From assembly GCA_946554525.1 (NCBI GenBank), contig CAMNSE010000004.1, positions 8,177 through 72,176 of the forward strand: a stretch of 64,000 bases of DNA. The letters are read 5' to 3'. The notes under the pieces are model-generated. The model searched no databases. It was not told the DNA's origin and saw only the letters and a program-made list of their open reading frames with translations. Made by a program: the position numbers and the translations under genes. This document shows, piece by piece, positions 7,841-64,000 of this stretch (position 1 is its first letter; each line of letters starts with the position of its first letter). The stretch comes from an uncultured Mycoplasma sp. Its GTDB lineage: Bacteria; Bacillota_I; Bacilli_A; RF39; UBA660.

Positions 7841-8636
7841 AACAGTTAGAAATACATTAAAAAAAAGAATTTTAAATAAAAAAATAGTAGATGTTAAAAT
7901 ATATTATGATAAAATGATTGAAAGTGATTTATCAACTTTTATTCCAGAGTTAATTGGTAAGTCTTTTATAGATATTAAAAGAAGAGGTAAATGGCTTATT
8001 TTTGAACTTGAAGATAGATACTTATTATCTCATCTTAGAATGGAAGGAAAATTTTATATTAAACCTAGTAATGAAGATAAAGGACGTCACGAACATGTCA
8101 CAATCTTTTTTAATGATAATACAAGTTTAAGATATGAAGATACACGTAAATTTGGAAGAATGAATTTAATTAAAAAAGAAGATCTAGAAATTACAGAGAG
8201 TATTAAAAAGCAAGGATTAGAGCCTGGAGATAAAAACTTAACTAGTGATTATTTATTAGAAAAATTTAAACATAAAAAACTACCAATTAAAACAGTATTA
8301 TTAGATCAAACAATAATAAGTGGACTTGGAAATATATATGCCAATGAGGTATTATTTGCTGCAAGGATTGATCCTTTAAAACAAGCTGGTTCTCTTAAAA
8401 AGGAGGAATGTGACCTTATTTGTAAATGTTCTCAAGAAATAATAAAAGAAGCTATTAAAATGGGTGGAACAACAATTAGAAGTTATACTTCAAGTTTAGG
8501 AGTTACAGGAAGATTTCAAGCAAATTTAATGGTTCATAAACGTGATAAAGAAGCTTGCTTAGTTTGCGGTAATACAATTCAAAATATAAAAGTTGGCGGA
8601 AGAAGTACCTACTATTGTTCTAACTGTCAGAAGTAA
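7818..8636 (+). CDS. mutM: formamidopyrimidine-DNA glycosylase (Fpg/MutM)
   Basis: Starting at GTG 7818 gives M-PEIAEVETV, which places the catalytic Pro at position 2. The track start at 7809 would bury that Pro. The C-terminus has the zinc finger CxxC...CxxC (CLVCG...YYCSNCQ). Confidence 0.9.
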   Translation: MPEIAEVETVRNTLKKRILNKKIVDVKIYYDKMIESDLSTFIPELIGKSFIDIKRRGKWLIFELEDRYLLSHLRMEGKFYIKPSNEDKGRHEHVTIFFNDNTSLRYEDTRKFGRMNLIKKEDLEITESIKKQGLEPGDKNLTSDYLLEKFKHKKLPIKTVLLDQTIISGLGNIYANEVLFAARIDPLKQAGSLKKEECDLICKCSQEIIKEAIKMGGTTIRSYTSSLGVTGRFQANLMVHKRDKEACLVCGNTIQNIKVGGRSTYYCSNCQK

Positions 8637-9846: not shown

Positions 9847-9868
9847 AATATCACCAAATTAATTATAG

Positions 9869-9897
9869 CAGAATATTATCAGGTTGATAATATTCTG
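9869..9897. promoter_or_regulatory. perfect 12-bp-arm palindrome (candidate operator or insulating hairpin)
   Basis: CAGAATATTATC-AGGTT-GATAATATTCTG. It overlaps the predicted tmcAL promoter (minus strand, TTATCA-17-TATAAT) and lies 20 nt upstream of the poly-G promoter -35. Confidence 0.45.
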
Positions 9898-9917
9898 TTA
9901 TGCAGTTTACAAAATAA

Positions 9918-9946
9918 TTGACTTCGGGGGGGGGGTATGCTATTAT
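9918..9946 (+). promoter_or_regulatory. sigma-A-type promoter with a G10 tract in the spacer (17-nt spacer)
   Basis: TTGACT (9918-9923), TC, G10 (9926-9935), TATGC, TATTAT (9941-9946). The TGC before TATTAT makes it an extended -10. The cassette is conserved at 21069 and 62782 with different G counts. Confidence 0.7.
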
Positions 9947-9974
9947 AAATATATAATAGAAAAGAGTTGATAAT

Positions 9975-11345
9975 ATGAAGTTTGAGACATTAAGAAAAGA
10001 TAATCGTAAGAAATGGATAGTAGGAGTTATAGCAATACTGGCTATAACATCGGTAGTATTCTTTGTATCAACTAGAGCAAATTATAAAACAGAACAAAGA
10101 TTAAATTTAATAAATACGAAAGTTAATTGGAATCCAACAGATTTAGAAATAGTGTCTATTAAACTAAAAGCTGGAGATAACTATACAGATACTAATACAG
10201 TACCAACAAGTGGATATACATTAAGTGATGAATCATATTGTGAAGTAAATGGAAGTAGAGATACAAGTATTCCTATGGAGTACAAAGATGGTAAAGTGAG
10301 TATTGGAGTAAGCAACAAAGGAACGAAGTGCTATTTAATATTTAATACTAAAACTCCTGTAGCAGCCGAAATAATACTTGCTAATAAAACTGTAGAAGAA
10401 AGAACAGATTTCAGTTCAGCATTAACAGAAAATACAACTGGAAAGATATATAAAACACAAGATGATGATGGAGATACATACTATTTTGCTGGGTCTGTAG
10501 ATAATAACTGGGTACAATTTGGAGCAGAAAATGGAAGCTCAATATATTGGCGAATAATAAGAATAAATGGTGATGGAACAATAAGATTAATCTATAATGG
10601 AACAAGTATGGTACAAACAGGAACATCAACTCAAATAAATGAAACAACATATAAGTTCTCAGCTACAAATGCTACAGGAACTCCAAGTTTTACTTATGCT
10701 AAAGATAATGCCTATGTAGGATATATGCGTGGAACAGCAGGGTCAAGCACATATGATGCAACACATACAAATACAATTAGTAGTTATGCAAAGCAAATTG
10801 TAGATGAATGGTATAGTACAAATCTAAATAAGACAGGAATCAAAGAGAAGATATCAACAAATACCGGATTTTGTGGAGATAGAACAAGCAATACAAATAG
10901 TAGTGCAGAACCTAATGGAACCGGAGGATACGGAACTACAAAAACATATTACGGAGCATTTTACAGATTATATACAAATAAAGCACCAAGCTTAAGATGC
11001 ACAAATGCAAATGATTTATATACAGTAAGTAGTGCAAATAAAGGAAATAAAGCCTTAACATATCCAGTAGCTCTAATAACAGCGGATGAGGTAGCATATG
11101 CCGGAGGAACAAAGGCAAGCGGTAATAGTTTATATTATTTAAATACAAATCAATATTATTGGACAATGTCTCCTTCTACCTTTAATGGGAGTTATGCGAT
11201 CATGTTTTCTGTGCACTTGGATGGTATACTAGACTCCCGCAACGTGTACCTTGCAAGCGGCCTTCGTCCAGTTATTAACTTAAAAGCTGATACTAAACTT
11301 ATAGGAGATGGGACAACTACCAGTCCATATACTGTAGAAGTATAG
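9975..11345 (+). CDS. membrane-anchored surface protein, poly-G-promoter family member 1
   Basis: N-terminal basic stretch plus a transmembrane segment (KKWIVGVIAILAITSVVFFVS). The extracellular part shares YWRIIRINGDGTIRLIYNG, FCGDR, ITADEVAYAGG, YYWTMSPS and LRPVINLK...GDGT...PY with the gene at 62835. The C-terminal domain architecture is shared with 21125-22651. Confidence 0.8.
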   Translation: MKFETLRKDNRKKWIVGVIAILAITSVVFFVSTRANYKTEQRLNLINTKVNWNPTDLEIVSIKLKAGDNYTDTNTVPTSGYTLSDESYCEVNGSRDTSIPMEYKDGKVSIGVSNKGTKCYLIFNTKTPVAAEIILANKTVEERTDFSSALTENTTGKIYKTQDDDGDTYYFAGSVDNNWVQFGAENGSSIYWRIIRINGDGTIRLIYNGTSMVQTGTSTQINETTYKFSATNATGTPSFTYAKDNAYVGYMRGTAGSSTYDATHTNTISSYAKQIVDEWYSTNLNKTGIKEKISTNTGFCGDRTSNTNSSAEPNGTGGYGTTKTYYGAFYRLYTNKAPSLRCTNANDLYTVSSANKGNKALTYPVALITADEVAYAGGTKASGNSLYYLNTNQYYWTMSPSTFNGSYAIMFSVHLDGILDSRNVYLASGLRPVINLKADTKLIGDGTTTSPYTVEV

Positions 11346-19373: not shown

Positions 19374-21017
19374 ATGAAAAAGAACTCATTTTTAGAAGGT
19401 TCTATTATAGCAACAATATCCCTTATTGTAGTAAGACTTTTAGGGTTATTATATGTTATTCCATTTTATGCTATTGTTGGTGCAACAGGGGCAGCATTAT
19501 ATGCTTATGCTTATAATATTTATGGTTTATTTTTGGATATATCTGCATCAGGTGTTCCTAGTGCTGTTGCTAAACTAATTAATGAGTTTAATACTTTAAA
19601 TAAACAAGAGGCAAAGATAAGAACTTTTATGATTGGCAAAAAGATATTAGGCTTTTTTGCAATAGCAGCCTTTATAGTATTATTTGTATTTGCTCCTCAG
19701 ATTTCCAAATTAATTATTCATGACATGACTGGAGGAAATACGATAGGGGATGTTACATTTGTACTTCGGTCTGTATCATTTGCACTTATTTTATTTCCAT
19801 TTTTAGGAATGAATCGAGGTTTTTTTCAAGGACATAATGTTATATCTGTTGCATCATTCTCTCAAGTAATTGAACAGGCAACAAGAATATTAGTAGTAAT
19901 ATTAGGTAGTTTTTTAGTTTTAAAAGTATTTGGTATGGATCTAAAATATGCTATTGGTATTGCCGTATTTGGAGCATTCTTAGGAGAACTTATGGCAGAT
20001 ATTTATGTTCATCATAAGCTTAAGAAACATAAAGAACAATTTTATCTCGATTATGAATTTAAGAAAAAGGATAATATTACTAACAATCAAATTATTAGAA
20101 GAATAATAAAGTATGCAATTCCTATTGTTATTATTACAGTTGCTACAACTATTTATAATAATATTGATATGATTTTAGTTTTAAGAACAATGAACAATTT
20201 AGGATTTGAAGCATATATATCTGAATTTGTAGCAACAGGTATCTCGACATGGGGAGCAAAAATTAGTGTTATAGTTACAACAATTAGTATGGGAATTTCT
20301 TCAAGTTTAGGTCCTCATTTAGTAGAGAGTTTTACTTTAAAAAACTATAAAGATGTAAATCATAAGCTTAATAAAGCTATGGAAATAGTTTTATTTATTA
20401 CAATACCAATGTGTATAGGCATATCTTTATTAAGTGACTCTATATGGACAGTATTTTATGGCCATAGTAGTATTGGAACTACATTACTTGCTATGACAAT
20501 ATTTTCTCCATTATTTGGAAATATTTATTCTATTGCAAATAATACATTACAAAGTATGAATAGATTTAAAATGGTTTATTTAAGTACAATATCTGGGTTT
20601 TTATTAAATACTTTACTTGATATTCCACTTATGCATTTATTTTACCATTTTAATCTTCCTGCTTATTGGGGCGCAATGGTAGCGACATTTTTAGGTTTTA
20701 CATTATCATATACCATAACGCTAGTATATTTAAAGAAAGCTTATCATTTTAATTATAGTGATATTGGAAAAACTTTAGGAAAAATTATTATTCCATTAGT
20801 ACCTATGATATTAGTAGTAGTTTTAATTAAATGGTTAATTCCAGTTAATTATGCATCAAGGATGTTTTGCATTTTATTTATAGCTATTTCTGCTACTGTA
20901 GGAGCGGCTATTTATTTCTTTATCTCATATAAAATGGGAATAATAGATAGTATCTTTGGTAAAGATGTCTTATCAAGAATCAAAAATAAATTTATAAAAC
21001 GCAAAAAAGAAGCTTAA
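19374..21017 (+). CDS. MOP-superfamily polysaccharide/lipid II flippase (MurJ/SpoVB/YtgP-like)
   Basis: About 14 predicted transmembrane segments and 547 aa. The N-terminus FLEGSIIATISLIVVRLLGLLYVIPF is typical of the YtgP/SpoVB group. Confidence 0.7.
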   Translation: MKKNSFLEGSIIATISLIVVRLLGLLYVIPFYAIVGATGAALYAYAYNIYGLFLDISASGVPSAVAKLINEFNTLNKQEAKIRTFMIGKKILGFFAIAAFIVLFVFAPQISKLIIHDMTGGNTIGDVTFVLRSVSFALILFPFLGMNRGFFQGHNVISVASFSQVIEQATRILVVILGSFLVLKVFGMDLKYAIGIAVFGAFLGELMADIYVHHKLKKHKEQFYLDYEFKKKDNITNNQIIRRIIKYAIPIVIITVATTIYNNIDMILVLRTMNNLGFEAYISEFVATGISTWGAKISVIVTTISMGISSSLGPHLVESFTLKNYKDVNHKLNKAMEIVLFITIPMCIGISLLSDSIWTVFYGHSSIGTTLLAMTIFSPLFGNIYSIANNTLQSMNRFKMVYLSTISGFLLNTLLDIPLMHLFYHFNLPAYWGAMVATFLGFTLSYTITLVYLKKAYHFNYSDIGKTLGKIIIPLVPMILVVVLIKWLIPVNYASRMFCILFIAISATVGAAIYFFISYKMGIIDSIFGKDVLSRIKNKFIKRKKEA

Positions 21018-21068
21018 TGAACTTCTTTTTTCTATGTAAAACATCTTGTAAATGAAATGCCCAAAATA

Positions 21069-21094
21069 TTGACTTCGGGGGGGTATGCTATTAT
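21069..21094 (+). promoter_or_regulatory. poly-G promoter cassette, copy 2 (G7, 14-nt spacer)
   Basis: TTGACT (21069-21074), TC, G7 (21077-21083), TATGC, TATTAT (21089-21094). Confidence 0.65.
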
Positions 21095-21124
21095 TTACTT
21101 ATAAAATAGTAAGGAGATAATAGT

Positions 21125-22651
21125 ATGGAGAAGAAAAAGAATATAACACTATTAGTAATAGGATTACTTGCAGTAGTAGCATTCTCATTTGGAATAAGTT
21201 ATGCCTACTTTGTAAGTAGAATTACTAAAGAAGGAGAAGGAAGCAATGTAGGTGGTTCAACTGCAACAAAACAAGATACAGTAGTAAGTACTACAGGATC
21301 TATTGGATTTACCGACACCAATATCTATCCAGGACATAAGAATATATCAAAGATTGTAGTAACAGCAACAGGAGATAGTCACGTAATATATAACTTAGTA
21401 TGGAATGGGACTAATACACTAAATACAACCATAAATTATAAGGTATATAAAGCAACAACAGAAAAGAATCCAAGCATTAAATGCGCAAAACATGAAGAAG
21501 GAACAATAAGAAAAGAGTTGTATGAGGAATGTACAGAGAACTTAACTGGATTAGGAGAGGTAATTTCTGAAGGAATGATAGAATCAACTGAAGCAAGTAC
21601 AAAAGTAAAACTAATAAGGAATGAAGAGATAGATGCGAGCAACGTAGGAGCAAAAGTATATTACTATATAGTACTAGAATATCCAAATAAAGAAGATAGC
21701 CAAAACATAGATATGAATGGTTCTTTTACAGGTAATATCAATGTAGAATTATTAGAAGAGAAAGAATATTGTACAAATGATACATGTAAATATTTAATAG
21801 CAAAGAATGAAATGGTACATGAGACATTTACAAAAGAAGATGGAACAGTAGTAGATACAGGATATAGATATGAAGGAGCAAACCCAAATAATTATGTAAG
21901 ATTCAATAATGAATTATGGAGAATAATCGGAGTATTTGAAACAGTAAATGCTGATACAAATGAAACAGAGAGTTTAGTCAAACTAATAAGAAATGAATCT
22001 ATAGGAAATATTAGATGGGATACATATGGATATTATGGATCAAATGATTGGACAGAATCAGATATCAAAACAATATTAAATGGACAATACTTAAATGGAG
22101 AAGATATAAACTATAATTATAGAAATCCTAATCATGGAGATGGCAATATTAATCCGACAGTATCAATAGCAGGTGTAAGCATCAAAGATACAGCAAGAGA
22201 AATGATTGAAAATGCAAAATGGAATATAGGAGGAGCTTCAAGTTCTTCTTCAATTGTATCAGCATTTTATATTGAAGAAAGAGGAACAACTGGAGCTAAA
22301 TCAAATCCAACCATAGCGACATGGAATGGATATATAGGGCTTATGTATCCAAGCGATTATGGATACGCAGTAGATAGCACATCATGTCCAAGAACAGCTT
22401 CGCTATGGAAATATTCCTATACTGGTTCGTGTAAAACAAATAACTGGCTATTAAATAATAACAATCAATGGATGTTAACGCCAAGTGCAGATGGTGAAAG
22501 TTCACAATATTATGTAAGCTATGACTATAACATTAATTCGCTTTATCCCGGATTAGAAAATAGCATTCGCCCAACTATATATCTGAAATCTAATGTGCAA
22601 ATAGTTGATGGAGATGGTTCACAAGAACATCCATATGAATTAACTATTTAA
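21125..22651 (+). CDS. secreted/anchored surface protein, poly-G-promoter family member 2
   Basis: AAGGAGA RBS. The N-terminal signal/anchor ends in GISYAYF. The C-terminal domain (NYVRFNNELWRIIGVF..., WTESDIKTILNGQYL, QWMLTPS, IRPTIYLK...GDGS..HPY) is homologous in layout to members 1 and 3. Confidence 0.8.
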   Translation: MEKKKNITLLVIGLLAVVAFSFGISYAYFVSRITKEGEGSNVGGSTATKQDTVVSTTGSIGFTDTNIYPGHKNISKIVVTATGDSHVIYNLVWNGTNTLNTTINYKVYKATTEKNPSIKCAKHEEGTIRKELYEECTENLTGLGEVISEGMIESTEASTKVKLIRNEEIDASNVGAKVYYYIVLEYPNKEDSQNIDMNGSFTGNINVELLEEKEYCTNDTCKYLIAKNEMVHETFTKEDGTVVDTGYRYEGANPNNYVRFNNELWRIIGVFETVNADTNETESLVKLIRNESIGNIRWDTYGYYGSNDWTESDIKTILNGQYLNGEDINYNYRNPNHGDGNINPTVSIAGVSIKDTAREMIENAKWNIGGASSSSSIVSAFYIEERGTTGAKSNPTIATWNGYIGLMYPSDYGYAVDSTSCPRTASLWKYSYTGSCKTNNWLLNNNNQWMLTPSADGESSQYYVSYDYNINSLYPGLENSIRPTIYLKSNVQIVDGDGSQEHPYELTI

Positions 22652-28203: not shown

Positions 28204-28367
28204 GGTTTATTATTGTAAATATATATTTATTAAAATGCAAGCAAAAGCGTTCGACAAAAATTGACATTTTAATGTAAACTCTGGCTTATTAACCTAAAGA
28301 TTGTTTACTTAAAAATTAATCATGTGTTATTATAAAAATATAGTAGGAAAGTAAGTGGAGTGTTTTT

Positions 28368-30353
28368 ATGAAAAAAATTGCATTATTAATGTTATTTGCC
28401 TTTTTATTTATTTTAGGTATAGCTTCTGTAGATGCTGCAAGTTATAATTATAATGTTAAATATGTATCAGGAGATTGTAAAAGTAGTACTGGGTGTAAAT
28501 ACAATTTACTCTTTAATTTGAAAGATTTGCCAAGCACACAAGTAAATCATTTAGAAGGAGAATTAATTTTAAGAGGATATGAAATTATTTCTACTAAGCT
28601 GGAAAATGATTTTGTGGGTACTTTTGATAAGAATACTGCCAAGTATAATTTAACATCTAAAAAGACTTATACTAAGAGTGATGGTGAAGTGGTATTTGCA
28701 TCAATAATGGCAAGAAAGATAATAGATAGTGATGATTGTAGAGTTGAAATTAAACCCTCCGTTACCGAAAAAGTAAATATTAATCAGTTTACAATGAATA
28801 AAGATGCTTATAAAGATGGCGTTAAGATTTCAAATATAAAAGTTGGAGAAGAATTTGAATATCGAATTAAAGTGACGGGTTTATATAATTATTTAGAAAC
28901 TGATGTTGTAAATATCAAAGATGTAATTCCAGAAGAATTAGAAGTAATAGATAATGGTGGAGCAACACTTACGAGTTCTAATACATATACGTGGTCTTTA
29001 GGAACATTTAAAGCTGGAACAGAGACAAAGACTATTTCCATAAAAGTAAGACTTAAGGATACTTTAAAAAGAAGTCTTTATAATAAATCAACTTTAACTG
29101 TAGAGGGGCAAGATCCAATTGAGGCTGGTAATACTATAAATATTGTGTATTCAGATATTCAAGTTAATAAAGAAGCAAGTAAAAATAAAATTGCTCCAGG
29201 ATCAGTTTTTGATTACAAAATTACTGTTAAAAATATGGGGAATGCTGTTTCTGAAAATATCGTTTTAAAAGATACTTTAGATAATAACTTAACGTTAATA
29301 AGTTCAGACGCTCGTTATACTAAAAATAACAATGAATTTTCTTTTGACATTGGAAAAATTGAAGCTGGCAAAAGTGTTACAATTACATTGCATGTTAAAG
29401 AAAATAATACTTTAAGTAAAGGAGAAATTGTAAATACTGCCATTGCCGTGGAAGAAGGGAAAAAAACTATCGAAGCTACTGCTGTTGTGACAGTGGAAAA
29501 AGAGGAATCATCAGGCGCTTTAGATAAACCTAGCATCAGCATTAAAAAAAGTAGTAATGAAAAAGAAGTTCAGGTTGGAAAAGAGTTTAAGTATACAATA
29601 GAGATTACAAATAATAATTCTCTAAACCTTAAAAATGTTATTTTAACTGATCATATTGATGATAACTTAGAAATCATTGATGCAAGTGGAGCTACTTATG
29701 AAAATGGTGTGTTAACATGGCAATTTGACTTAGATAGCAAAAAGGATAAAGCTTTTACGATAAGAGTTAAAGCAAAAGATGATACAAAGCTTAGGGAAAT
29801 TAAAAATCAAGCAAAAGTTTATTATAATGATTTAGAAGAAGAAAGTAATGAGGTTGTAATAATTGTAATAGAAGGGGACAAAAAAGAATCTCTAGATAAA
29901 CCTAGTATCAGCATTAAAAAAAGTAGTAATGAAAAAGAAGTTCAGGCTGGAAAAGAGTTTAAGTATACTATAGAGATTATAAATAATAATTCTCTAAACC
30001 TTAAAAATGTTATTGTAACTGATCATATTGATGATAACTTAGAAATCATTGATGCAAGTGGAGCTACTTATGAAAATGGTGTGTTAACATGGCAATTTGA
30101 CTTAGATGGTAAAAAGGATAAAACTTTTACGATAAGAGTTAAAGTAAAAGATGATACAAAGCTTGGAAAAATCAAGAATCGTGCAAAAGTATTAAATGAT
30201 GATTTTGAAGAAGAAAGCAATGAAGTTGTAATAACTGTTGTTGAAGTAGAAAATCCTAAAACGGGTATGATTAGTGGAGGAATTATTCTAGTTTTAGTAG
30301 GGGTTTTAGTTATATTAAAAATAAAAAATAAAAATAAATTACTAAAAATTTAA
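28368..30353 (+). CDS. cell-wall-anchored surface protein with DUF11-type repeat domains and an NPKTG sorting signal
   Basis: Signal peptide MKKIALLMLFAFLFILGIASVDA. Repeated domains of the form F-x-Y-x-I-x-V-x-N-x-G...L-x-D-x-L. The C-terminus is NPKTG, a hydrophobic segment, then KIKNKNK. Confidence 0.85.
   Translation: MKKIALLMLFAFLFILGIASVDAASYNYNVKYVSGDCKSSTGCKYNLLFNLKDLPSTQVNHLEGELILRGYEIISTKLENDFVGTFDKNTAKYNLTSKKTYTKSDGEVVFASIMARKIIDSDDCRVEIKPSVTEKVNINQFTMNKDAYKDGVKISNIKVGEEFEYRIKVTGLYNYLETDVVNIKDVIPEELEVIDNGGATLTSSNTYTWSLGTFKAGTETKTISIKVRLKDTLKRSLYNKSTLTVEGQDPIEAGNTINIVYSDIQVNKEASKNKIAPGSVFDYKITVKNMGNAVSENIVLKDTLDNNLTLISSDARYTKNNNEFSFDIGKIEAGKSVTITLHVKENNTLSKGEIVNTAIAVEEGKKTIEATAVVTVEKEESSGALDKPSISIKKSSNEKEVQVGKEFKYTIEITNNNSLNLKNVILTDHIDDNLEIIDASGATYENGVLTWQFDLDSKKDKAFTIRVKAKDDTKLREIKNQAKVYYNDLEEESNEVVIIVIEGDKKESLDKPSISIKKSSNEKEVQAGKEFKYTIEIINNNSLNLKNVIVTDHIDDNLEIIDASGATYENGVLTWQFDLDGKKDKTFTIRVKVKDDTKLGKIKNRAKVLNDDFEEESNEVVITVVEVENPKTGMISGGIILVLVGVLVILKIKNKNKLLKI
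29520..30245 (+). repeat. tandem duplication, 2 x 372 bp (124 aa), inside the surface-protein gene
   Basis: Unit 1 starts at 29520 (TTAGATAAACCTAGCATCAGC) and unit 2 at 29892 (CTAGATAAACCTAGTATCAGC). Only scattered substitutions are seen over most of the unit. The second copy diverges near the sorting signal. Confidence 0.9.
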
Positions 30354-38689: not shown

Positions 38690-38766
38690 GTCCTCGTAGC
38701 TCAGCTGGATAGAGCGACCCCCTCCTAAGGGGTAGGTCGTAGGTTCGAATCCTATCGAGGACACCA
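38690..38766 (+). tRNA. tRNA-Arg (anticodon CCT)
   Basis: Hand-folded cloverleaf. Acceptor GTCCTCG/CGAGGAC, D arm GCTC-AGCTGGATA-GAGC, anticodon arm ACCCC-CTCCTAA-GGGGT, T arm GTAGG-TTCGAAT-CCTAT, with encoded CCA. Confidence 0.9.
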
Positions 38767-38794
38767 TTTTTATTTTATAAATATGGGGGGTAAT

Positions 38795-54336: not shown

Positions 54337-57231
54337 ATGTATGTACCATTAAAAATTATGACTGAATATTCATTACTTAAGAGTACTATTAAGATTGATA
54401 CATTGGTAAGTTTTTTACAAAAACATAATATCACTAGCTGTGCTATTTGTGATACAAATTTATATGGTGTAATGGAGTTTTATACAAAGCTAACAGCCAA
54501 TAATATAAAGCCTATTATTGGTTTAGAAGTAATAATAGATGGTTGTCCACTCTATTTATATGCCCAGAATAATTTAGGATATCGTAATTTACTTAAAATA
54601 AATACATATATGGAAATGAAAACAATTTCACATGCAGAAATAAAAAAATATTTAGAGCATATTAAGATTGTTTTACCATATATATCATATTCATTATTAG
54701 ATATATATCCTAGTGCTTATTTGGGATACAAAAATGATACTGAGAAAATAGAAGCTAATTTAAAATCTAATAAAAATGTATATATAAGAGAAGTTAGATG
54801 TTTAGATAAAGATGATACAAAATATTTAAGAGTACTAGAAGCAATAGACAAAGGTGTAAATTTAGATGAAATAATTTCTAATTATGATTGTAATTATTTT
54901 GCCATAAATATTTCAGAAGAAGATAAATTAAGTACTATAGAATTTACTCGTGATATAAATGTTACTATATCAAAAAGTGAAAATCATATTCCAATATATA
55001 ATAGTGGAGTGAATTCTTTTGAATACTTAAAAAAACTAGCCTATAGAGGATTAGAAAAAAGATTAGATGGTAAGATTATTAAAGAATATCAAGAAAGATT
55101 AGATTATGAGTTAAGCGTAATTAAAAAAATGGGGTTTGTAGACTATTTTTTGATTGTTTATGATTATGTGTTTTATGCTAAAAAAAATAATATTTTAGTA
55201 GGTCCAGGAAGAGGAAGTGCAGCGGGATCTTTAGTAAGTTATTGTATTGGAATAACTGATGTTGATCCAATACAATATCATTTACTATTTGAAAGGTTTT
55301 TAAACCCTGAAAGAATTACGATGCCTGATATTGATATAGACTTTGAATACACTAAAAGAGGTCAAATTATTGATTATGTAAGAAATAAATATGGTCAAAT
55401 GAATGTTGCTCCAATTATGACTTTTGGTACGCTTAGTGCTAAGCAAGTAATTCGGGATGTTGCGCGAGTTTTAGATATTGATATCTCTTTAGTTGACCGA
55501 TTGTCTAGTGTCCTTGATGCTAAATTAAATTTAAAAGAGAATATGAAAAGTCCAAATGTCATGAAAATGATTAATGAAAATCCTATTTTAAAAGATGCTA
55601 TAAGTACATCTTTAAAATTAGAAGGATTAAAAAGACATATTTCAACTCATGCAGCTGGTGTAGTTATCTCAAGCATTCCTCTTGATGATGTAATTCCTGT
55701 ATGTTTTAATAGTGATATTTTAATGACTGGGGTTACTATGGAGTATTTAGAGAGTTTAGGGCTTCTTAAAATGGATTTTTTAGCTCTTCGAAACTTAACA
55801 ATAATAAGTAATGTTCTTGATTTAGTAAATAGTGCTACTGGTAAAAAAATAGAACTATCTAAAATTTCATTAAATGATTCTGAAATATTTAACTTATTTG
55901 CAAGTGGAGATACCGAAGGAATTTTTCAATATGAAAGCAGTGGAATGCGCAATTTGATGCTTAAATTAAAGCCATCTAGTTTTTCTGATTTAATTGCTGC
56001 AGTCGCATTATTTAGACCAGGACCTATACATAATATTGACATGTTTATTAGAAGAAAATATAAAAAAGAGAAAATTGATTATTTGCATCCTGATTTAGAA
56101 CCTATTTTAAAAGAAACTTATGGAGTAATTGTATACCAAGAACAAGTCATGCAAATATTAGTTAAAATTGGTGGATATACTTATGCCCAAGCTGATAACA
56201 TAAGAAGAGCTATGTCTAAGAAAAAAGAAAGCATTATGTTAGAAGACAAGAACCATTTTATTATAGAAGCTAAAAAACGAGGATATCATGAAAATATTGC
56301 TAAAGAAATATATGATTTGATTTTAAAATTTGCTAATTATGGATTTAATAAAGCTCATTCTGTTTCATATGCCTTAATTGGTTATAGGATGGCCTATTTA
56401 AAAGTTCATGCTCCTATGTATTTCATTGCCAATTTACTTAACATGAGTATTGGTAGTGAAATTAAAACTAAAGAATACATTGATGAAGCTAGAAAAAAGG
56501 AAATTATAATTTTAAAACCGGATATTAATATAAGTGATGCTACTTATAGAATAAAAGATAATACTTTAATGTTACCGCTTAGTAGTATTAAAAATTTAGG
56601 ATCTCAAGCAAGTAGCTCAATTTTAGAAGAAAGAGAAAAAAATGGAGTATATTCTAGTTATTTAGATTTTGTATCTCGTGTTTATGGAAAAAGTGTAAAT
56701 AAAAAGACTATTAGTTCTTTAATTGAAGCTGGAGTTTTAGATTCTTTTAATCTAAGTAAAAAGACAATGATAGAAAATTTAGATATTGCTATTAATTATG
56801 CGGAGCTAATTAGCAATTTAGACAAAAATTTTGTAATGGAGCCAAACATTCAAGAATACCCAGAATATGAAGAAGATACGTTAAGAGGATTTGAAATGTC
56901 TTCTTATGGATTCTATGTTAATAGTCATCCAGTTAGTAAATATCAAGATAAAACTATTGTTAAAAATGAAAATATTAAAAATTATTTTAATAAGCGAATT
57001 AAAAGTGTAGTTTTAGTTGAAAAGATAAAATCTTTAAAAACAAAAAAAGGAGATTCTATGGCATTTCTAACCGGTTCTGATGAAACTGGGAATGTAGAAT
57101 TTGTTATTTTTCCAAGTTGCTATAATAGCCTTGCAAATATCAAAAAGAATGATATAATAACAATAAATGGTAAAGTAACTAAACGATTTGATAGTTATCA
57201 AGTTAGTGTAGATTTTTTAAATAAAATATAG
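54337..57231 (+). CDS. dnaE: DNA polymerase III alpha subunit, DnaE type
   Basis: Has GPGRGSAAGSLVSYCIGITDVDP, PDIDIDF, GLLKMDFLALRNLT, YGFNKAHS and a C-terminal OB fold. The N-terminal PHP motif is degenerate (see findings). Confidence 0.93.
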   Translation: MYVPLKIMTEYSLLKSTIKIDTLVSFLQKHNITSCAICDTNLYGVMEFYTKLTANNIKPIIGLEVIIDGCPLYLYAQNNLGYRNLLKINTYMEMKTISHAEIKKYLEHIKIVLPYISYSLLDIYPSAYLGYKNDTEKIEANLKSNKNVYIREVRCLDKDDTKYLRVLEAIDKGVNLDEIISNYDCNYFAINISEEDKLSTIEFTRDINVTISKSENHIPIYNSGVNSFEYLKKLAYRGLEKRLDGKIIKEYQERLDYELSVIKKMGFVDYFLIVYDYVFYAKKNNILVGPGRGSAAGSLVSYCIGITDVDPIQYHLLFERFLNPERITMPDIDIDFEYTKRGQIIDYVRNKYGQMNVAPIMTFGTLSAKQVIRDVARVLDIDISLVDRLSSVLDAKLNLKENMKSPNVMKMINENPILKDAISTSLKLEGLKRHISTHAAGVVISSIPLDDVIPVCFNSDILMTGVTMEYLESLGLLKMDFLALRNLTIISNVLDLVNSATGKKIELSKISLNDSEIFNLFASGDTEGIFQYESSGMRNLMLKLKPSSFSDLIAAVALFRPGPIHNIDMFIRRKYKKEKIDYLHPDLEPILKETYGVIVYQEQVMQILVKIGGYTYAQADNIRRAMSKKKESIMLEDKNHFIIEAKKRGYHENIAKEIYDLILKFANYGFNKAHSVSYALIGYRMAYLKVHAPMYFIANLLNMSIGSEIKTKEYIDEARKKEIIILKPDINISDATYRIKDNTLMLPLSSIKNLGSQASSSILEEREKNGVYSSYLDFVSRVYGKSVNKKTISSLIEAGVLDSFNLSKKTMIENLDIAINYAELISNLDKNFVMEPNIQEYPEYEEDTLRGFEMSSYGFYVNSHPVSKYQDKTIVKNENIKNYFNKRIKSVVLVEKIKSLKTKKGDSMAFLTGSDETGNVEFVIFPSCYNSLANIKKNDIITINGKVTKRFDSYQVSVDFLNKI

Positions 57232-57245
57232 AAGGAAGTGACATC

Positions 57246-60200
57246 ATGCATGATATAAATTCATTTTTAGAAAGTATTGGAGTAACTGATGAGACTCATG
57301 CATTTAAGGATATCTTAATAGATAAAGTGAAATTAAATAAAAAGACCCAAAACTTTTCTGTTTATTTAGTTAGTAAGAATGTTTTACCTATTAAAGATGC
57401 TAATATTTTGCTTAATAAAAAGTATAAAATTCATGATAACTATCCTTGTGAAATCTATTTGAACTATGAAAATATAAAAGATGATGATGTAAAAATTTAT
57501 GTAAGAGAAATTATGAATGAGCTGGTTTTAGATAAGCCATCATTAGTTAGTTTACTTGATAATGAAGCAATTATTGATGATGATATTATAATTTTTGAAG
57601 TAATTAGTGAAACGGAAGAAGAGATTATTAAAAAAGAACAAGCTAATATTTTATCTTCTTTAGAAAAATATGGTTTTCATGGATATTTTATAACAACTAG
57701 AATGAATGAAGAAAAAAGAAAAGAAGTTGTAAGTGAATTAGAAAGTGCTCAAGCTCCTGTAGAGTATAAAGAGCAAATTCAAGAATTTATTCCTGGAAGT
57801 GTTATTAAAGGAAAAGCTATAACTAAAGAAGCTTCTCCTATTGGAAGTATTACTTCTGTTAGTAAATCAGTAACAATTGAAGGATATATTGAATCTATTT
57901 CTTATTTAGAAAGAGATAATATTAATATTATTACACTATCTATTAATGATAACGATAAAAGCATTATGGCTAAAATTTTTGAAAAAGAAAAAGAAAAATA
58001 TTTACTAATTAAGAATGCTCTAAAAGTTGATTCATGGTATCGCTTAAATGGAAGTGTTGATTTAGATTCCTATTCTAAATGTCTTGCATTATCTGTTAGG
58101 AATTTAGAAGATATTGAAGATAGGGAAATAATTATTAGTACGAGTGAAGACCCTAATATTGTATTAGGAGAACATGTGGATGGAGAAGTTTGTAGAATTG
58201 ATAATATTGTAGGAGCTAAGGAAAATGTTATTATTGAAGCTTTTGTTTTTGGAATGGATTTATTAGAAAAGGATACTATTAATATTATGACTTTGAAGGT
58301 TAGTGATAAAACAAGTAGTATACTTGCAAAAGTTTTCAAAAAAAACAAAAGAGAATTTGAGGCAATAAAAAAAGGTTTAAAAAGCGCTGTAAAGAAAAAA
58401 GAATGGTATCGCTTTCATGGTAATATTGAATTTGATAATTATTCTCATGAATTAGTATTTCAAATAAGAAATTTAGAACATATTCCTAGTAAAGATGAAA
58501 AAGTGGTAGATGATGCACTAGTTAAAAGAGTGGAACTTCATGCTCATACTATGATGAGTATGATGGATGGTTTAATTCCTAATGATGAAAAAGATCCACG
58601 TAACCTATGTCAATTTGCTTATGATTTCGGACATAAAGCTATAGCTGTTACAGATCACAATGTTCTTCAGGCTTATCCAAATATGTTTCATGCCGTAAAT
58701 AGTTTAAATAAAGGCAAAAATCCGGAAGAACATTTTAAAATGATTTACGGAACAGAACTTAATGTGGTAAATGATGATATTGATTTTATTCACAATTTAA
58801 GAGAATATGAGCTTTTAAATGGCGAGTATATTGTATTTGATACAGAAACAACTGGTCTTTATCTTGGAAGTGACCAAATGATTGAAATTGGTGCTGTAAA
58901 AATTAAAGATAAACAAGTAATTGATCGTTTTGATGAATTTATTGATCCTCATCGTCCACTTCCAGAAAAAATAAAAACTTTGACCTGTATTACAGATGAA
59001 ATGCTTGCTGGCCATGATGATGAGAAAAGTGTTACTAAACGTTTCTTAGATTGGGTAGGAGATCTACCTATGGTTGCGCATAATGCGAAGTTTGATATTG
59101 GATTTATTAATGCAGCTTGTGAAAAATATAATTTAGGAGAGTTTAATAATACAGTGTTAGATACAATGAGTATGGCAAGATTTTTACATCCAGAATGGCC
59201 TAATCATAAACTAACAACACTTGCTAGGCGTTATAAAATTGAATGGGATGAAGAAGCACACCATAGAGCAGATTATGATGCAGAAGGGACAGCTTATGCA
59301 TTTATTAAAATGTGTGAAGAATTGGATAGTCAAAACATTGAAACAACTACAAAACTAGTAAATTCTGTAGATATTAATGAACTTGTTAAGTTCTCATTTC
59401 CTTTTCATTTATGTTGTTTAGTAAAAAATAAAACAGGACTTAAGAATTTATTTAAAATTATTTCTTATGCAAATACGACTTATTTATTTAAAAACAGTGA
59501 GCCAAAGCTTCCTAGAGGAGAACTAAAGAAATATCGTGAAGGGCTTCTTATAGGCTCTGGGTGTGTAAATGGTGAAATATTTGAAGAAGCAAAAACGAAA
59601 GATGATGAAGAACTTGCTAATTTAATGAACTTTTATGATTATATAGAAGTTCAGCCACTTAGTGCAATTAAACATTTATTACAACTAGAATCTAGTGGGT
59701 TTAAAACAATGAATGAACTAGAAGAACATATAAAGAAGATTATTCGTGTTGCGCGTGATGCAGGTAAAATTGTAGTAGCTACAAGTGATGCTCATTATTT
59801 AAGACCAGAAGATAAAATCTATCGTGATATAATAATTGGTCAAAAATCCAATGGAAAATTGCATCCTTTAAATAAAAGAGGTGTAGATCAACCAGATATG
59901 CATATTCGTACAACTAAGGAAATGTTAGATGAATTTGCATTCTTAGGCAGTGATCTTGCTTATGAAATTGTTGTAACTAATTCTAATAAAATTGCTGATA
60001 TGATTGAAGAAGTCGAAGTAATTATTCAAACAGGAGGAGTTCCTTTTTCACCTAAAATTGATAAGTCAGTTGAAACAGTAACTAATCTTGTATATACAAA
60101 AGCTAAAGATTGGTATGGGGATCCACTTCCATTTAATATTGAAGAGAGAATTTCAAAAGAATTATATGGAGATGCGGTATTAGAAAGTATTCGTACTAAA

Positions 60201-62279
60201 CTATCTCGCGAAGAAAAGCTAGAAGGCGATACTCTTAATAAAAAATCTTTTGCAATTCTTCATGAAACAATATTAAATGGATTTGATGCTGTAAAAGAAA
60301 TTATTAAAGAAGAACTTGAAATTAAACTTAAAGAAGATCATGAGAATAGTATTAAAGAAATAGAAAATAAACTAAAAGAAGCTTCTTTAGAAGAAAAGAA
60401 AGAATTAGAAGAAAATCTAAAAGTATTAAAAGATACAGATCCTCTTAGTGATATTGAAAAAAAGATTAAGAAATCTTTAGGTGGTATTATTGGAGGAGGA
60501 TTTGATGTAATTTATTTAATTGCACAAAAATTAGTTAAGAAAAGTAATGATGATGGCTTTCTAGTAGGATCCCGTGGTTCTGTTGGATCAAGTTTTGTTG
60601 CAACTATGATGGGTATTACTGAGGTTAATTCACTCCCTCCACATTATCGTTGCAAAAAATGTAAATGTAGTATTTTTGAAGATGAAAATGGTAATGCTTT
60701 AGGAGCAACTTATAAAAGTGGATTTGATCTTCCAGATAAGATGTGTCCAAATTGTAATATTGCTATGGTAAAAGATGGACAAGATATGCCATTTGCAACC
60801 TTCCTTGGATTTAATGCAGATAAAGTACCAGATATAGACCTTAATTTCTCAGATTTAAATCAAGCTGCAGCACATGATTATACGAAAGTATTATTTGGTA
60901 TAGATAATGTATATAGAGCGGGAACTATCGGTACAGTAGCTGAAAAAACTGCTTTTGGTTTTGTAAGAGGTTATGCAGAACAAAAGGGTATAATTATGAG
61001 TAATGCTGAGGTAGAGAGGCTTGCTATGGGATGTACAGGAGTTAAACGTACAACAGGTCAGCATCCAGGGGGAATAGTTGTTATTCCAGGATATATGGAT
61101 GTATTTGATTTTACACCTTTCCAATATCCAGCAGAAGATATTGATGCTGCATGGAGAACAACGCATTTTGATTATCATGCAATTGATGAAGATGTCTTAA
61201 AGCTAGATATTCTAGGACATACAGATCCTACACAGCTAAGAATGATTCAAGATATATCCGGAATAGATGTTACAACCGTTCCGTTAGATGATAAAGATAC
61301 AATGGGCATATTTTTATCACCAGAACCTCTTGGGGTTACAAAAGACCAAATTATGAACGAAACTGGTACTCTTGGAGTTCCTGAGTTTGGAACACCATTT
61401 ACCATTGGAATGCTAACCGATACTAAGCCTAAAACATTTGCCGAATTAATTAAAATATCAGGTCTTTCTCATGGTACTGATGTTTGGCTTGGAAATGCTC
61501 AAGAATTAATTAAGAATAATGTAGTTCCATTTAGTGATGTTATTGGTTGTCGTGATGATATCATGGTTTACTTAATGTATAAAGGCCTAAAACCAATTAA
61601 GGCATTTAAAATTATGGAATTTGTTCGTAAAGGAAAAGCATCAAAAGAGCCTGAAGCTTGGGCAGAACATAAAAAAACAATGGAAGAAGCAGGAATAGAG
61701 TCGTGGTTTATAGAGTCATGTGGTAAAATTAAGTACATGTTTCCTAAAGCCCATGCTGCAGCTTATGTAATGAGTGCATTTAGAATTGCTTATTTTAAAG
61801 TCCATTATCCAGAGATTTATTATGCAACATATTTTTCAACAAGATTTGATGATTTCGATTTAGAAACGATGGTAAAGGGATATGACGCTATTCGATCTCG
61901 TATGAATGAAATTATTGAAAAAGGCTATGATGCTACTAATAAAGAAGCGAGTGTACTTGAAACACTAAAACTTGCTTTAGAAGCTACAGCTAGAGGATAT
62001 AAGTTTGGTAATATTGATATTGAGAAGAGTGATAGTAAAAACTTTATTATTGCAGATGATAAAAAAACGCTTATCTGTCCATTTAGAACACTTGATGGAC
62101 TAGGAGATAGTGTTGCTACTAAAATTATTGAAGAGCGAAATATAAAACCATTTTATAGTATAGAAGACTTCCAAAATAGAGGAAGAGTAAATGCTACAAC
62201 AGTAGATAAATTAAGAGCACTTGGAGTATTTGGGGATTTACCAGAAACTAGTCAGTTAAGTTTATTTGACTTTGTTTAG
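57246..62279 (+). CDS. polC: DNA polymerase III PolC type (1677 aa, expanded)
   Basis: PHP VELHAHTMMSMMDG, exonuclease YIVFDTETTGL...HNAKFDIGF...HRADYDA, and SRGSVGSSFVATMMGITEVNSLPPHY with CxxC...CxxC. Also PDIDLNF and the KAHAAAYV finger region. Confidence 0.97.
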   Translation: MHDINSFLESIGVTDETHAFKDILIDKVKLNKKTQNFSVYLVSKNVLPIKDANILLNKKYKIHDNYPCEIYLNYENIKDDDVKIYVREIMNELVLDKPSLVSLLDNEAIIDDDIIIFEVISETEEEIIKKEQANILSSLEKYGFHGYFITTRMNEEKRKEVVSELESAQAPVEYKEQIQEFIPGSVIKGKAITKEASPIGSITSVSKSVTIEGYIESISYLERDNINIITLSINDNDKSIMAKIFEKEKEKYLLIKNALKVDSWYRLNGSVDLDSYSKCLALSVRNLEDIEDREIIISTSEDPNIVLGEHVDGEVCRIDNIVGAKENVIIEAFVFGMDLLEKDTINIMTLKVSDKTSSILAKVFKKNKREFEAIKKGLKSAVKKKEWYRFHGNIEFDNYSHELVFQIRNLEHIPSKDEKVVDDALVKRVELHAHTMMSMMDGLIPNDEKDPRNLCQFAYDFGHKAIAVTDHNVLQAYPNMFHAVNSLNKGKNPEEHFKMIYGTELNVVNDDIDFIHNLREYELLNGEYIVFDTETTGLYLGSDQMIEIGAVKIKDKQVIDRFDEFIDPHRPLPEKIKTLTCITDEMLAGHDDEKSVTKRFLDWVGDLPMVAHNAKFDIGFINAACEKYNLGEFNNTVLDTMSMARFLHPEWPNHKLTTLARRYKIEWDEEAHHRADYDAEGTAYAFIKMCEELDSQNIETTTKLVNSVDINELVKFSFPFHLCCLVKNKTGLKNLFKIISYANTTYLFKNSEPKLPRGELKKYREGLLIGSGCVNGEIFEEAKTKDDEELANLMNFYDYIEVQPLSAIKHLLQLESSGFKTMNELEEHIKKIIRVARDAGKIVVATSDAHYLRPEDKIYRDIIIGQKSNGKLHPLNKRGVDQPDMHIRTTKEMLDEFAFLGSDLAYEIVVTNSNKIADMIEEVEVIIQTGGVPFSPKIDKSVETVTNLVYTKAKDWYGDPLPFNIEERISKELYGDAVLESIRTKLSREEKLEGDTLNKKSFAILHETILNGFDAVKEIIKEELEIKLKEDHENSIKEIENKLKEASLEEKKELEENLKVLKDTDPLSDIEKKIKKSLGGIIGGGFDVIYLIAQKLVKKSNDDGFLVGSRGSVGSSFVATMMGITEVNSLPPHYRCKKCKCSIFEDENGNALGATYKSGFDLPDKMCPNCNIAMVKDGQDMPFATFLGFNADKVPDIDLNFSDLNQAAAHDYTKVLFGIDNVYRAGTIGTVAEKTAFGFVRGYAEQKGIIMSNAEVERLAMGCTGVKRTTGQHPGGIVVIPGYMDVFDFTPFQYPAEDIDAAWRTTHFDYHAIDEDVLKLDILGHTDPTQLRMIQDISGIDVTTVPLDDKDTMGIFLSPEPLGVTKDQIMNETGTLGVPEFGTPFTIGMLTDTKPKTFAELIKISGLSHGTDVWLGNAQELIKNNVVPFSDVIGCRDDIMVYLMYKGLKPIKAFKIMEFVRKGKASKEPEAWAEHKKTMEEAGIESWFIESCGKIKYMFPKAHAAAYVMSAFRIAYFKVHYPEIYYATYFSTRFDDFDLETMVKGYDAIRSRMNEIIEKGYDATNKEASVLETLKLALEATARGYKFGNIDIEKSDSKNFIIADDKKTLICPFRTLDGLGDSVATKIIEERNIKPFYSIEDFQNRGRVNATTVDKLRALGVFGDLPETSQLSLFDFV

Positions 62280-62284
62280 GATAA

Positions 62285-62755
62285 ATGATGGAAATAGAAA
62301 GAAAGTTTAAAGTAAATTATCTACCAGATTTATCTAATTATCCATTTTATGAGATAACTCAAATGTATTTAAGCTATGATTTAGATATTCGAATTCGTAA
62401 GAAAGGCAACAAATATTTTATAACAAAGAAAAGTAATGATACTATAAAAAGATATGAAGAAGAAGTAGAAATAGACTATCAAACATTTGATATTTTAAGT
62501 ACTTTAAGCGTAGGTAATATAATATCTAAAACAAGATACTTAATTCCTATAGATAATAGCTTAACTGCTGAAGTAGATATCTACCATGGTGTTTTGGAAG
62601 GACTAGTAACAGTAGAAGTGGAATTTTCTTCTTTAGAAGAAGCAAATAGTTTTATAGCTCCTTTATGGTTTGGCGAAGAAATAACTGAAAATATGCAATA
62701 TAAAAATAAAGAGTTAGCTAAATTAAATAATTTAACTCAAATAAGAAAGCTTTAA
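62285..62755 (+). CDS. CYTH-domain protein (triphosphate tunnel metalloenzyme family)
   Basis: The N-terminal EIERKF signature and a size of about 155 aa. Confidence 0.7.
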   Translation: MMEIERKFKVNYLPDLSNYPFYEITQMYLSYDLDIRIRKKGNKYFITKKSNDTIKRYEEEVEIDYQTFDILSTLSVGNIISKTRYLIPIDNSLTAEVDIYHGVLEGLVTVEVEFSSLEEANSFIAPLWFGEEITENMQYKNKELAKLNNLTQIRKL

Positions 62756-62781
62756 AGAGCTTTTTTATTTTGCAAAAAATA

Positions 62782-62809
62782 TTGACTCCGGGGGGGGGTA
62801 TGCTATTAT
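62782..62809 (+). promoter_or_regulatory. poly-G promoter cassette, copy 3 (G9, 16-nt spacer)
   Basis: TTGACT (62782-62787), CC, G9 (62790-62798), TATGC, TATTAT (62804-62809). Confidence 0.65.
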
Positions 62810-62834
62810 AAATATAAGAATAGAGAGTGATAGT

Positions 62835-64000
62835 ATGGAGTTCGAAACAATAAAAAAAGATAACCGTAAGAAATATGTTATTGGAGTTATAGTAATACTT
62901 GCTGTATCTTCAGTAGTGTTCTTTGTATCAACTAGAGCAAATTATAAAGATGAACAACGATTAAATTTAATAAATACGAGAGTTAATTATAGTCCAAGTG
63001 ACTTAGATGTAATGGCTATAAAGGTGCAAAATTCAAGTGGAGGATATGATACGGTAGATACAGTGCCAACTAGCGGATACACACTAAATAGCGAATCATA
63101 TTGTGAAGTAAATGGAAGCAAAGATGCAAGTATACCAATAGAATACAAAGATGGAAGAGTTACGATACCAGTAGAATCTAAAGGCACAAAATGTTATTTA
63201 TTTTTTGATGAAAAACCTATATCAATAGCTGATATTTTAGATGGATTAACCAAAGAAAAAAGAACCGATTTTAGTTCAGTATTAACGAAAAATACAACTG
63301 GAAAAATATATACTGCTGAAGATGATGATGGTACAAGTTATTATTATGCTGGGGCAGTAGATAATAACTGGGTACAATTTGGAACAGAAAATGGAAGTCC
63401 AATATATTGGAGAATAATAAGAATAAATGGCGATGGAACAATAAGATTAATTTATAATGGAACAAGTATGGTCCAAACAGGAACATCAACTCAGATAAAT
63501 GGAACAGCATATACGTTCTCGCATAAAGATGCAGTATCAGTGGAAACCTATGCTAATGATAATGCATATGTGGGATATATGTATGGAACAGCAGATTCTA
63601 GTACATATGAAGCAACCCATACGAATACAAATAGTAGTTATGTAAAACAAATGGTAGATGAATGGTATAATACAAATCTAAATAAAACTGGCATAAAAGA
63701 GAAGATATCAACGAATGCTGGCTTTTGTGGAGATAGAAGCTTACAAAGTGGAACAGGAGTAGGAACAACTCAAACTTATTATAAAGCTTATAATAGGCTA
63801 TCTACAAATAAAGTCCCAAGCTTAAAATGTACAAATGAAAATGACTTATATACAGTAAGTAGTGCAAATAAAGGAAATAAAGCATTAACATATCCAGTAG
63901 GATTAATAACAGCAGATGAAGTAGCATATGCTGGAGGAATAATTACATATAATACTAATTATTCATATTATTTATATACAAACGAATATTATTGGACAAT
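62835..64000 (+). CDS. membrane-anchored surface protein, poly-G-promoter family member 3 (3' end outside the window)
   Basis: Absent from the ORF track because it has no stop in the window. Translation from ATG 62835 gives MEFETIKKDNRKKYVIGVIVILAVSSVVFFVSTRANYKDEQRLNLINTRVNYSPSDL... It stays open to 64000 and is colinear with 9975-11345, with long identical nucleotide stretches such as GGAACAAGTATGGT.CAAACAGGAACATCAACTCA. Confidence 0.85.
   Translation, partial: MEFETIKKDNRKKYVIGVIVILAVSSVVFFVSTRANYKDEQRLNLINTRVNYSPSDLDVMAIKVQNSSGGYDTVDTVPTSGYTLNSESYCEVNGSKDASIPIEYKDGRVTIPVESKGTKCYLFFDEKPISIADILDGLTKEKRTDFSSVLTKNTTGKIYTAEDDDGTSYYYAGAVDNNWVQFGTENGSPIYWRIIRINGDGTIRLIYNGTSMVQTGTSTQINGTAYTFSHKDAVSVETYANDNAYVGYMYGTADSSTYEATHTNTNSSYVKQMVDEWYNTNLNKTGIKEKISTNAGFCGDRSLQSGTGVGTTQTYYKAYNRLSTNKVPSLKCTNENDLYTVSSANKGNKALTYPVGLITADEVAYAGGIITYNTNYSYYLYTNEYYWT

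Follow-up and report, generated by a model that had tools for sequence, protein, structure and literature searches.

Length-variable poly-G tracts lie in predicted promoter spacers of genes for lectin-like surface proteins in an uncultured gut Mycoplasma sp.

We analyzed a stretch of 64,000 nt (the window; positions 8,177 to 72,176 of contig CAMNSE010000004.1, assembly GCA_946554525.1) from an uncultured Mycoplasma sp. of the RF39 lineage, in which three genes for predicted surface proteins are each preceded by a promoter-like cassette with a run of G residues. The GC content of the window is 27.9%. Gene 1 (9975-11345, plus strand, 456 aa) codes for a protein with an N-terminal membrane helix, a beta-sandwich, and a predicted DUF6273/C-type-lectin-like domain (copy 1). 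The product of gene 2 (21125-22651, plus strand, 508 aa; copy 2) has a signal or anchor sequence ending in SYAYF, a beta-rich N-terminal module, and a divergent DUF6273-like C-terminal module. Gene 3 (62835-64000, plus strand; copy 3) is cut by the end of the window, and its full protein, P0001, has 445 aa. Genes 1 and 3 are 70% identical. All three stand singly among housekeeping genes: gene 1 is flanked by the genes for a TmcAL-like nucleotidyltransferase and YceD, gene 2 by those for a flippase and a cysteine desulfurase, and gene 3 lies downstream of the genes for PolC and a CYTH protein.

Cassette 1 (9918-9946, plus strand) consists of the -35 hexamer TTGACT (9918-9923), TC, ten G residues (G10, 9926-9935), and TATGCTATTAT (9936-9946), with a spacer of 17 nt. 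The original prediction had read locus 1 in this way, as an extended -10 promoter, and had placed the same cassette at two further sites; our analysis confirmed all three. Cassette 2 (21069-21094, plus strand) has TTGACT (21069-21074), TC, G7 (21077-21083), and TATGCTATTAT (21084-21094), with a spacer of 14 nt, and cassette 3 (62782-62809, plus strand) has TTGACT (62782-62787), CC, G9 (62790-62798), and TATGCTATTAT (62799-62809), with a spacer of 16 nt. The general form is ATTGACTYC-Gn-TATGCTATTAT, present three times in the window, and the spacer from TTGACT to TATTAT equals the G count plus 7 (17, 14, and 16 nt at loci 1, 2, and 3). A near-consensus TTGACT stands directly 5' of the G tract at all three loci, TATGCTATTAT fits the Gram-positive extended -10 element TRTGnTATAAT (TRTGnTATTAT here), and aligning the three upstream regions revealed a conserved AAAATATTGACTYC-Gn-TATGCTATTAT between diverged flanks. 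The distance from the -10 element to the start codon is 25-30 nt at every locus, and the predicted leader of ∼20 nt would have room for a ribosome-binding site only. In a scan for sigma-70-type promoters with spacers of 16-18 nt, loci 1 and 3 scored 10/12 with the TG extension present; locus 2, with its 14-nt spacer, is outside the range accepted by the scan. Rfam and tRNA scans were empty at the cassettes, which rules out a known RNA element there. By sequence, the repeat lies between the -35 and -10 elements of the predicted driving promoter at all three loci.

Runs of seven or more G occur in the window only in the three cassettes, as had been noted by eye before, and the next longest is a single G6 at 38785, the only addition at a threshold of six. 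C runs of six or more are absent from the 64-kb window. When up to two mismatches were allowed, TTGACTYCGGGGGG matched three times in the window, compared with 0.02 matches expected from shuffles. The G6 run (38785-38790) closely follows a tRNA-Arg gene (38690-38766). An ATG stands 5 nt further on, at 38796, and the run would be a Shine-Dalgarno-like element for the 159-aa open reading frame (ORF) there, which has no family match. The gene for a DUF11-repeat surface protein (661 aa, 28368-30353) has the same type of extended -10 element upstream (TGTGTTATTAT at 28323-28333) and an ordinary A/T-rich spacer, giving an example of a non-variable promoter in the same genome.

We compared the window with contigs from Logan assemblies of 16 other sequencing runs, found by exact-protein look-up of neighbouring housekeeping genes. 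Exact-protein look-ups with copy 1, copy 2, P0001, P0010 (a paralog encoded outside the window), and a 156-aa version of the CYTH ORF gave no match. The alignment set comprised 24 contigs; the mosaic contig L025 was left out of it and is counted in the tract readings of locus 3. Over 53,514 aligned nt, the 24 contigs showed a single substitution relative to the window, and all seven gapped alignments had a gap inside a G tract. At locus 1, where the window has G10, two contigs have G9 (L008 and L010). At locus 2, G7 in the window, three contigs have G9 (L011, L012, and L013), and at locus 3, G9 in the window, we read G7 in L025 and L027 and G8 in L031. Thus, all eight complete tract readings differ from the window, with a range including the window of G7-G10, and two-base differences (G7 versus G9) were seen at two loci. 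In a control set of 22 A/T runs of 7-8 nt, there was no change in 89 spanned instances. Tract length therefore varies among otherwise identical genomes far above background mutation, and the G tracts are hypermutable and the only indel-variable positions among these near-clonal populations. The states of loci 2 and 3 are opposite in the window (7, 9) and in run SRR30517270 (9, 7); hence, the loci vary independently. Both results support the original prediction, which had proposed phase variation by three independently switching tracts.

Contig L025 (SRR27999955) is of a different kind. Compared with positions 61106-62821 of the window, it has 113 mismatches (93% identity) in its PolC part, and its last 220 nt, including the G7 cassette, are 100% identical to the window. 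It arose either by recombination between related strains or by chimeric assembly of co-occurring relatives. We rejected it as a divergent strain that kept the cassette, because a mosaic with an identical end gives no evidence of deep conservation.

The contigs also tend to end at the tracts. All 13 contigs that reach locus 1 (3 contigs) or locus 3 (10 contigs) stop inside the tract or at most 23 nt beyond it. At locus 3, the last base is the eighth G in six contigs and the seventh G in one, two contigs with a G7 tract run on to +23, and the G8 contig L031 ends 6 nt past the tract; at locus 1, L009 ends after G9. Logan uses a graph with k = 31 and discards only k-mers seen once (PMC12424806). 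When we simulated mixed tract lengths with k = 31, the shared left unitig ended right after the shorter tract and the G7-specific branch ended at +23; a single tract length was traversed without a break. Nine of the ten ends at locus 3 and one of the three at locus 1 fall on such simulated mixture junctions. Contigs from three of the same runs traverse the G9 tract of locus 2 unbroken, so a G9 run by itself is no assembly barrier. The pattern of contig ends points to truly mixed populations at loci 1 and 3, although it is assembly-based and error k-mers may contribute. All contigs with the YceD gene have their start within the 3' end of copy 1, and none extends to cassette 1. Eight of the nine shown (L014-L022) start at 11041 and one, L020, at 11021, and the similarity of the first ∼130 nt from 11041 to the 3' part of gene 3 (63871-64000) is 81.5%. 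Besides the G tracts, repeats shared by paralogs also fragment assemblies of this organism.

The products of genes 1 and 3 matched no Pfam or NCBIfam model at threshold. Copy 1 scored 16.2 bits (E = 0.01) against PF19789 (DUF6273), below the gathering threshold of 23.5 bits, and copy 2 and P0001 gave no match in the PF19789 search. Some homologs within the family, which is unnamed and has more than 7,400 relatives, carry precomputed PF19789 matches, and P0277 scores 34 bits. An AlphaFold (AF2) model of copy 1, made from 50 homologs, reached a predicted local distance difference test (pLDDT) score of 85.6 and contains a hydrophobic helix (residues 11-32), a small beta-sandwich, and a large C-terminal domain. 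In Foldseek searches, the best solved match was the immunoglobulin A (IgA) peptidase of Thomasclavelia ramosa (9qa6; E = 5e-5, probability 1.0), and the best viral models were phage "DUF6273 domain-containing" proteins (E = 1e-5 to 1e-3); residues ∼130-456 are the part that matches DUF6273 folds. The N-terminal domain of the T. ramosa peptidase is annotated as DUF6273 (PMC12402451), and for phage receptor-binding proteins, a C-type-lectin-like character of DUF6273 has been described (PMC10743442). According to its model, copy 1 shares the fold of recognised DUF6273 members even though its sequence score is sub-threshold. Full-length homologs of gene 2 match PF12389 (Peptidase_M73, camelysin) above the Pfam cut-off and PF19789 below it. 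We take the SYAYF at the end of the gene 2 N-terminus to resemble signal peptides of the TasA/camelysin type. The AF2 model of copy 2 (pLDDT 74) had no significant match in PDB, and PDB sequence searches gave no matches. Hence, the products are predicted to be membrane-anchored or secreted surface proteins with a DUF6273/C-type-lectin-like fold.

The three genes had been described as paralogous, which holds for copies 1 and 3. The alignment of gene 2 with genes 1 and 3 is confined to the last ∼70 residues (BLAST E = 1e-4), with hhalign probabilities of 81% for single sequences and 97% for profile-profile comparison. The N-terminal halves of copy 2 and copies 1/3 are unrelated, yet the core of the cassette is kept. 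Copy 2 appears to be only a remote paralog, linked to copies 1 and 3 via common modules. This link is strengthened by chimeric paralogs encoded outside the window: P0010 joins a gene-2 N-module to a gene-1-type C-module, and P0261, P0266, P0269, and P0274 join the gene-1 N-module to a gene-2-type C-module. P0270 carries a third N-module, and P0054 and P0256 complete the set outside the window. These paralogs probably share a metagenome-assembled genome (MAG) with the window, as judged from their provenance tags, which are the same as those of the window contig. The modular repertoire comprises three N-terminal modules (copy 1/3, TasA-like of copy 2, and P0270) and two lectin-like C-terminal modules in at least 11 genes, and the combinations suggest domain shuffling by recombination. 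The first residues of the called ORF of P0010, MLLF, translate ATGCTATTATTT, a part of the conserved -10 box, which makes a fourth cassette upstream of P0010 very probable.

We next turn to the distribution of the tract. In the nearest other species, with a TmcAL 87% identical, the orthologous promoter reads TTGCAA-17-TATACT with a mixed-sequence spacer and no repeat. Homologs of ∼50% identity in other species have TTGACT-17-TATACT, or TATGCTATGAT after an A/T-rich stretch. G or C runs of at least 5 within 160 nt upstream were found in none of 47 family members from other metagenome contigs, nor was such a run present upstream at loci L002-L005, and we rejected a family-wide promoter repeat on these grounds. 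The tract is restricted to this lineage. Since the nearest species and the relatives lack it, the poly-G was recently inserted, in this lineage only, into an extended -10 promoter that is older, after which it either spread to several paralogs or was kept by them. A scan for the exact cassette gave one chance match in GTDB representative genomes, in a tRNA promoter of a GC-rich Oscillospiraceae MAG, and two unrelated GC-rich matches in viral contigs, all of which we discarded; there was none in metagenome contigs. With no true match, the species is absent from those collections. In other species, a conserved palindromic element, TTGACAAGTTTTGATAACnTTTGTCGAA, lies ∼60-90 nt upstream of the family gene and is followed by a -10 element of the TRTGnTAT type (L036, L037, L038, L040, L042, L043, L046, L051, L060, L065, and L087). 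It is possibly an activator or repressor site. We looked for TTGACAAGTTTTGATAACnTTTGTCGAA in the window and found it absent, with the TTGACT and poly-G arrangement in its place.

The surroundings of the cassettes contain several inverted repeats. The original prediction had placed a hairpin or terminator before each promoter, which our analysis bears out for locus 3, weakly for locus 2, and not for locus 1. A hairpin with a T run 3' of the CYTH gene (62739-62770, plus strand; -11 kcal/mol, z = -3.1) is likely to be an intrinsic terminator that insulates cassette 3. A weak A-tract/T-tract hairpin 3' of the flippase gene (21003-21031, plus strand; -4.5 kcal/mol, z = -1.2, not significant) may terminate transcription ahead of cassette 2. 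A strong inverted repeat with 17-nt arms (9865-9901, no strand assigned; -19.6 kcal/mol, z = -6.1) separates cassette 1 from the divergent TmcAL-like gene and coincides in part with a predicted promoter on the minus strand (TTATCA-17-TATAAT, 9890-9862). This repeat resembles an operator or a bidirectional insulator more than an obvious, classical terminator. At locus 2, a 17-nt inverted repeat with 82% complementarity (21085-21101 with 21110-21126) pairs the -10 box and early leader with the ribosome-binding site and start codon of gene 2, and a weaker -10/leader pairing is present at locus 1 (9940-9947 with 9952-9959). The relevance of the pairing at locus 2 would depend on the position of the transcription start. 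Upstream of locus 3, genes for DnaE-type (964 aa) and PolC-type (1677 aa) polymerases are adjacent on the same strand (54337-62279), followed by the small CYTH-domain gene and cassette 3; the organism is a low-GC member of Bacillota, because both DnaE and PolC are present. Its TmcAL-like protein is 73% identical to TmcAL of "Mycoplasma sp. CAG:776", an organism assigned by GTDB to the order RF39.

We consider it probable that each of these genes is under its own sigma-A-type promoter, whose slippage-variable G spacer tunes the output of the surface protein. This reading builds on the anatomy of the cassettes and on the hypermutability, independence, and lineage restriction of the tracts. Each gene, and probably further paralogs likewise, would have a promoter made of TTGACT, the spacer, and TATGCTATTAT. 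Slipped-strand mispairing at replication would add or remove G residues, shifting the spacer within 14-17 nt in 1-nt steps. RNA polymerase would then meet the -35 and -10 elements in a different relative position, and the yield of surface protein would change accordingly. By established promoter rules, the optimum is 17 nt, a spacer of 16 nt is functional, and those of 15 and 14 nt perform poorly. The expected order of activity would thus be G10 (17 nt) highest, G9 (16 nt) active, and G8 and G7 (15 and 14 nt) low. The -35 element is less important for extended -10 promoters, and the TRTG type can partly stand in for it. Because an extended -10 element is present, short-tract states should be low rather than silent, and the device would be a dimmer as much as a switch. 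The effect on expression is probably graded and not ON/OFF, and copy 2 with its G7 tract, previously called "OFF", is more likely "low". With loci mutating independently, a clonal population would contain cells with differing combinations of lectin-like proteins. Such mixtures may be of use in the gut against IgA antibodies, against phage, or when ligands change. We infer from the sequence where transcription would start, how tract length would affect expression, that the proteins would be at the surface, and what the selective agent or benefit may be.

Several points weigh against tuning by the spacer. The extended -10 element could free transcription from the -35 spacing and blunt any switch. 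G9-10 homopolymers are error-prone in Illumina sequencing, and consensus differences between G9 and G10 are less secure than those of two bases; the A/T control runs (7-8 nt) are shorter than the longest G tracts and thus not length-matched. Part of the contig-end pattern could stem from error k-mers, and locus 2 showed no sign of mixing within samples, its contigs crossing the tract. Some runs may share a host cohort or be the MAG's own dataset, which makes the number of independent populations uncertain.

These points lead to other explanations. The tracts might be hypermutable without any regulatory effect, the extended -10 element driving transcription at any spacer length and the hotspot being inherited with a duplicated promoter. 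We regard this as unlikely, though it is the strongest of the alternatives: the TRTGnTATTAT element TATGCTATTAT also has a counterpart before the surface protein gene at 28323, and relatives appear to use a similar -10 element without a recognisable -35 at consensus spacing. Yet the near-consensus TTGACT has been retained beside the tract at three loci, and unselected homopolymers should decay, whereas three to four loci keep 7-10 G residues in a genome of 28% GC with none elsewhere. In addition, the observed spacers of 14-17 nt are at or slightly under the optimum and none is over it.

If the tracts were in fact fixed, the length differences and contig breaks would be sequencing or assembly artefacts at poly-G. 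Contigs do end at tracts, homopolymer indel errors are common, and Logan retains any k-mer seen twice. We nevertheless hold this to be very improbable, given two-base differences at two loci, the agreement of three runs on G9 at locus 2, and the fact that the same runs cross G9 at locus 2 yet break at locus 3; modal lengths also differ among loci, and the 89 A/T run instances were invariant. Slightly less credible still, in our estimate, is a cassette that is a transcribed leader or the site of a common regulator instead of a promoter core, with the G run acting via the structure of the RNA or a bound protein. An operator could account for the identical 11-nt box at three loci, and there is partial complementarity of the -10 box and early leader to the region of the ribosome-binding site and ATG, most clearly at locus 2 (17 nt, 82%). 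However, terminator-like hairpins lie upstream of loci 2 and 3, the hexamers and their spacing obey sigma-A rules, one G run cannot form a quadruplex, and a sequence-specific site would not tolerate 7-10 G residues. Promoters with a variable G spacer remain our preferred reading.

A wider repertoire is conceivable. What we see in the three cassettes may be part of a genome-wide set of combinatorial, independently dimmable surface lectins of recent origin, a proposal that we put forward tentatively and consider somewhat less likely than its opposite; the recent origin would follow from the lack of the tract in the sister species. If most paralogs had the same poly-G promoter, the repertoire would be comparable to the Opa or Vlp systems of pathogens, and public metagenomes would give direct access to switching at the population level. 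Phase variation by slippage is textbook knowledge for mucosal pathogens, and such switches are barely documented in uncultured Bacillota with small genomes, a common group in gut metagenomes. In our literature searches, whose coverage was incomplete, no such switch turned up for RF39-like or related gut Bacillota. The candidate described here is recognisable from sequence, and its activity is visible in public assemblies as the only variable site and a recurrent breakpoint. It gives a way to learn which surface proteins in a commensal that cannot be cultured face fluctuating selection by IgA, phage, or host glycans, and it represents a contingency locus with a recent, datable origin, because the orthologous promoter of the nearest species has no repeat. 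As a practical warning, such loci fragment metagenome assemblies. To specialists, the mechanism itself would be unsurprising; the interest lies in its occurrence in an uncultured commensal and in its possible control of a combinatorial lectin repertoire.

The proposed mechanism matches, by analogy, the known type of switch in which a homopolymer sits in the promoter spacer. The closest case is the vlp family of Mycoplasma hyorhinis (mentioned in PMC2268961 and PMC10502178), which likewise has several related surface protein genes with their own promoters and a homopolymer between -35 and -10, in an AT-rich, reduced-genome relative of Bacilli; vlp genes switch independently and generate combinatorial surfaces. 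The vlp tracts are poly-A and their products are lipoproteins with repetitive tails, whereas here poly-G precedes genes for proteins with a DUF6273 lectin-like domain, the -10 element is of the extended TRTG type, the organism is an uncultured gut commensal, and the switching of expression is a prediction. Next in similarity are porA (poly-G) and opc (poly-C) of Neisseria meningitidis, with runs of ∼9-11 between -35 and -10, where changes by one base set the expression of a surface protein to a high, intermediate, or low level (for surveys, see PMC5084427 and PMC6389960). Those are Gram-negative pathogens with an unrelated promoter for each gene; here, one identical cassette serves three to four modular paralogs. 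Promoter G/C tracts before paralogous surface proteins that vary between and within strains are also found in fim2 and fim3 of Bordetella pertussis (poly-C) and in tpr genes of Treponema pallidum (poly-G; PMC1891110 and PMC7864442). In Bordetella, the tract spaces the BvgA activator site from the -10 element, and in Treponema, the tracts are upstream of the start site in varying relation to the hexamers, unlike the arrangement here between two near-consensus hexamers. Concerning the products, the T. ramosa IgA peptidase and the DUF6273 proteins of phage known as "tentaclin" or as targets of diversity-generating retroelements (DGRs) are alike in predicted fold, extracellular, and C-type-lectin-like. 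The window proteins have no peptidase domain, no DGR was seen, and their Pfam score is sub-threshold; unlike in DGR targets, diversity here would come from expression and module shuffling instead of retroelement mutagenesis.

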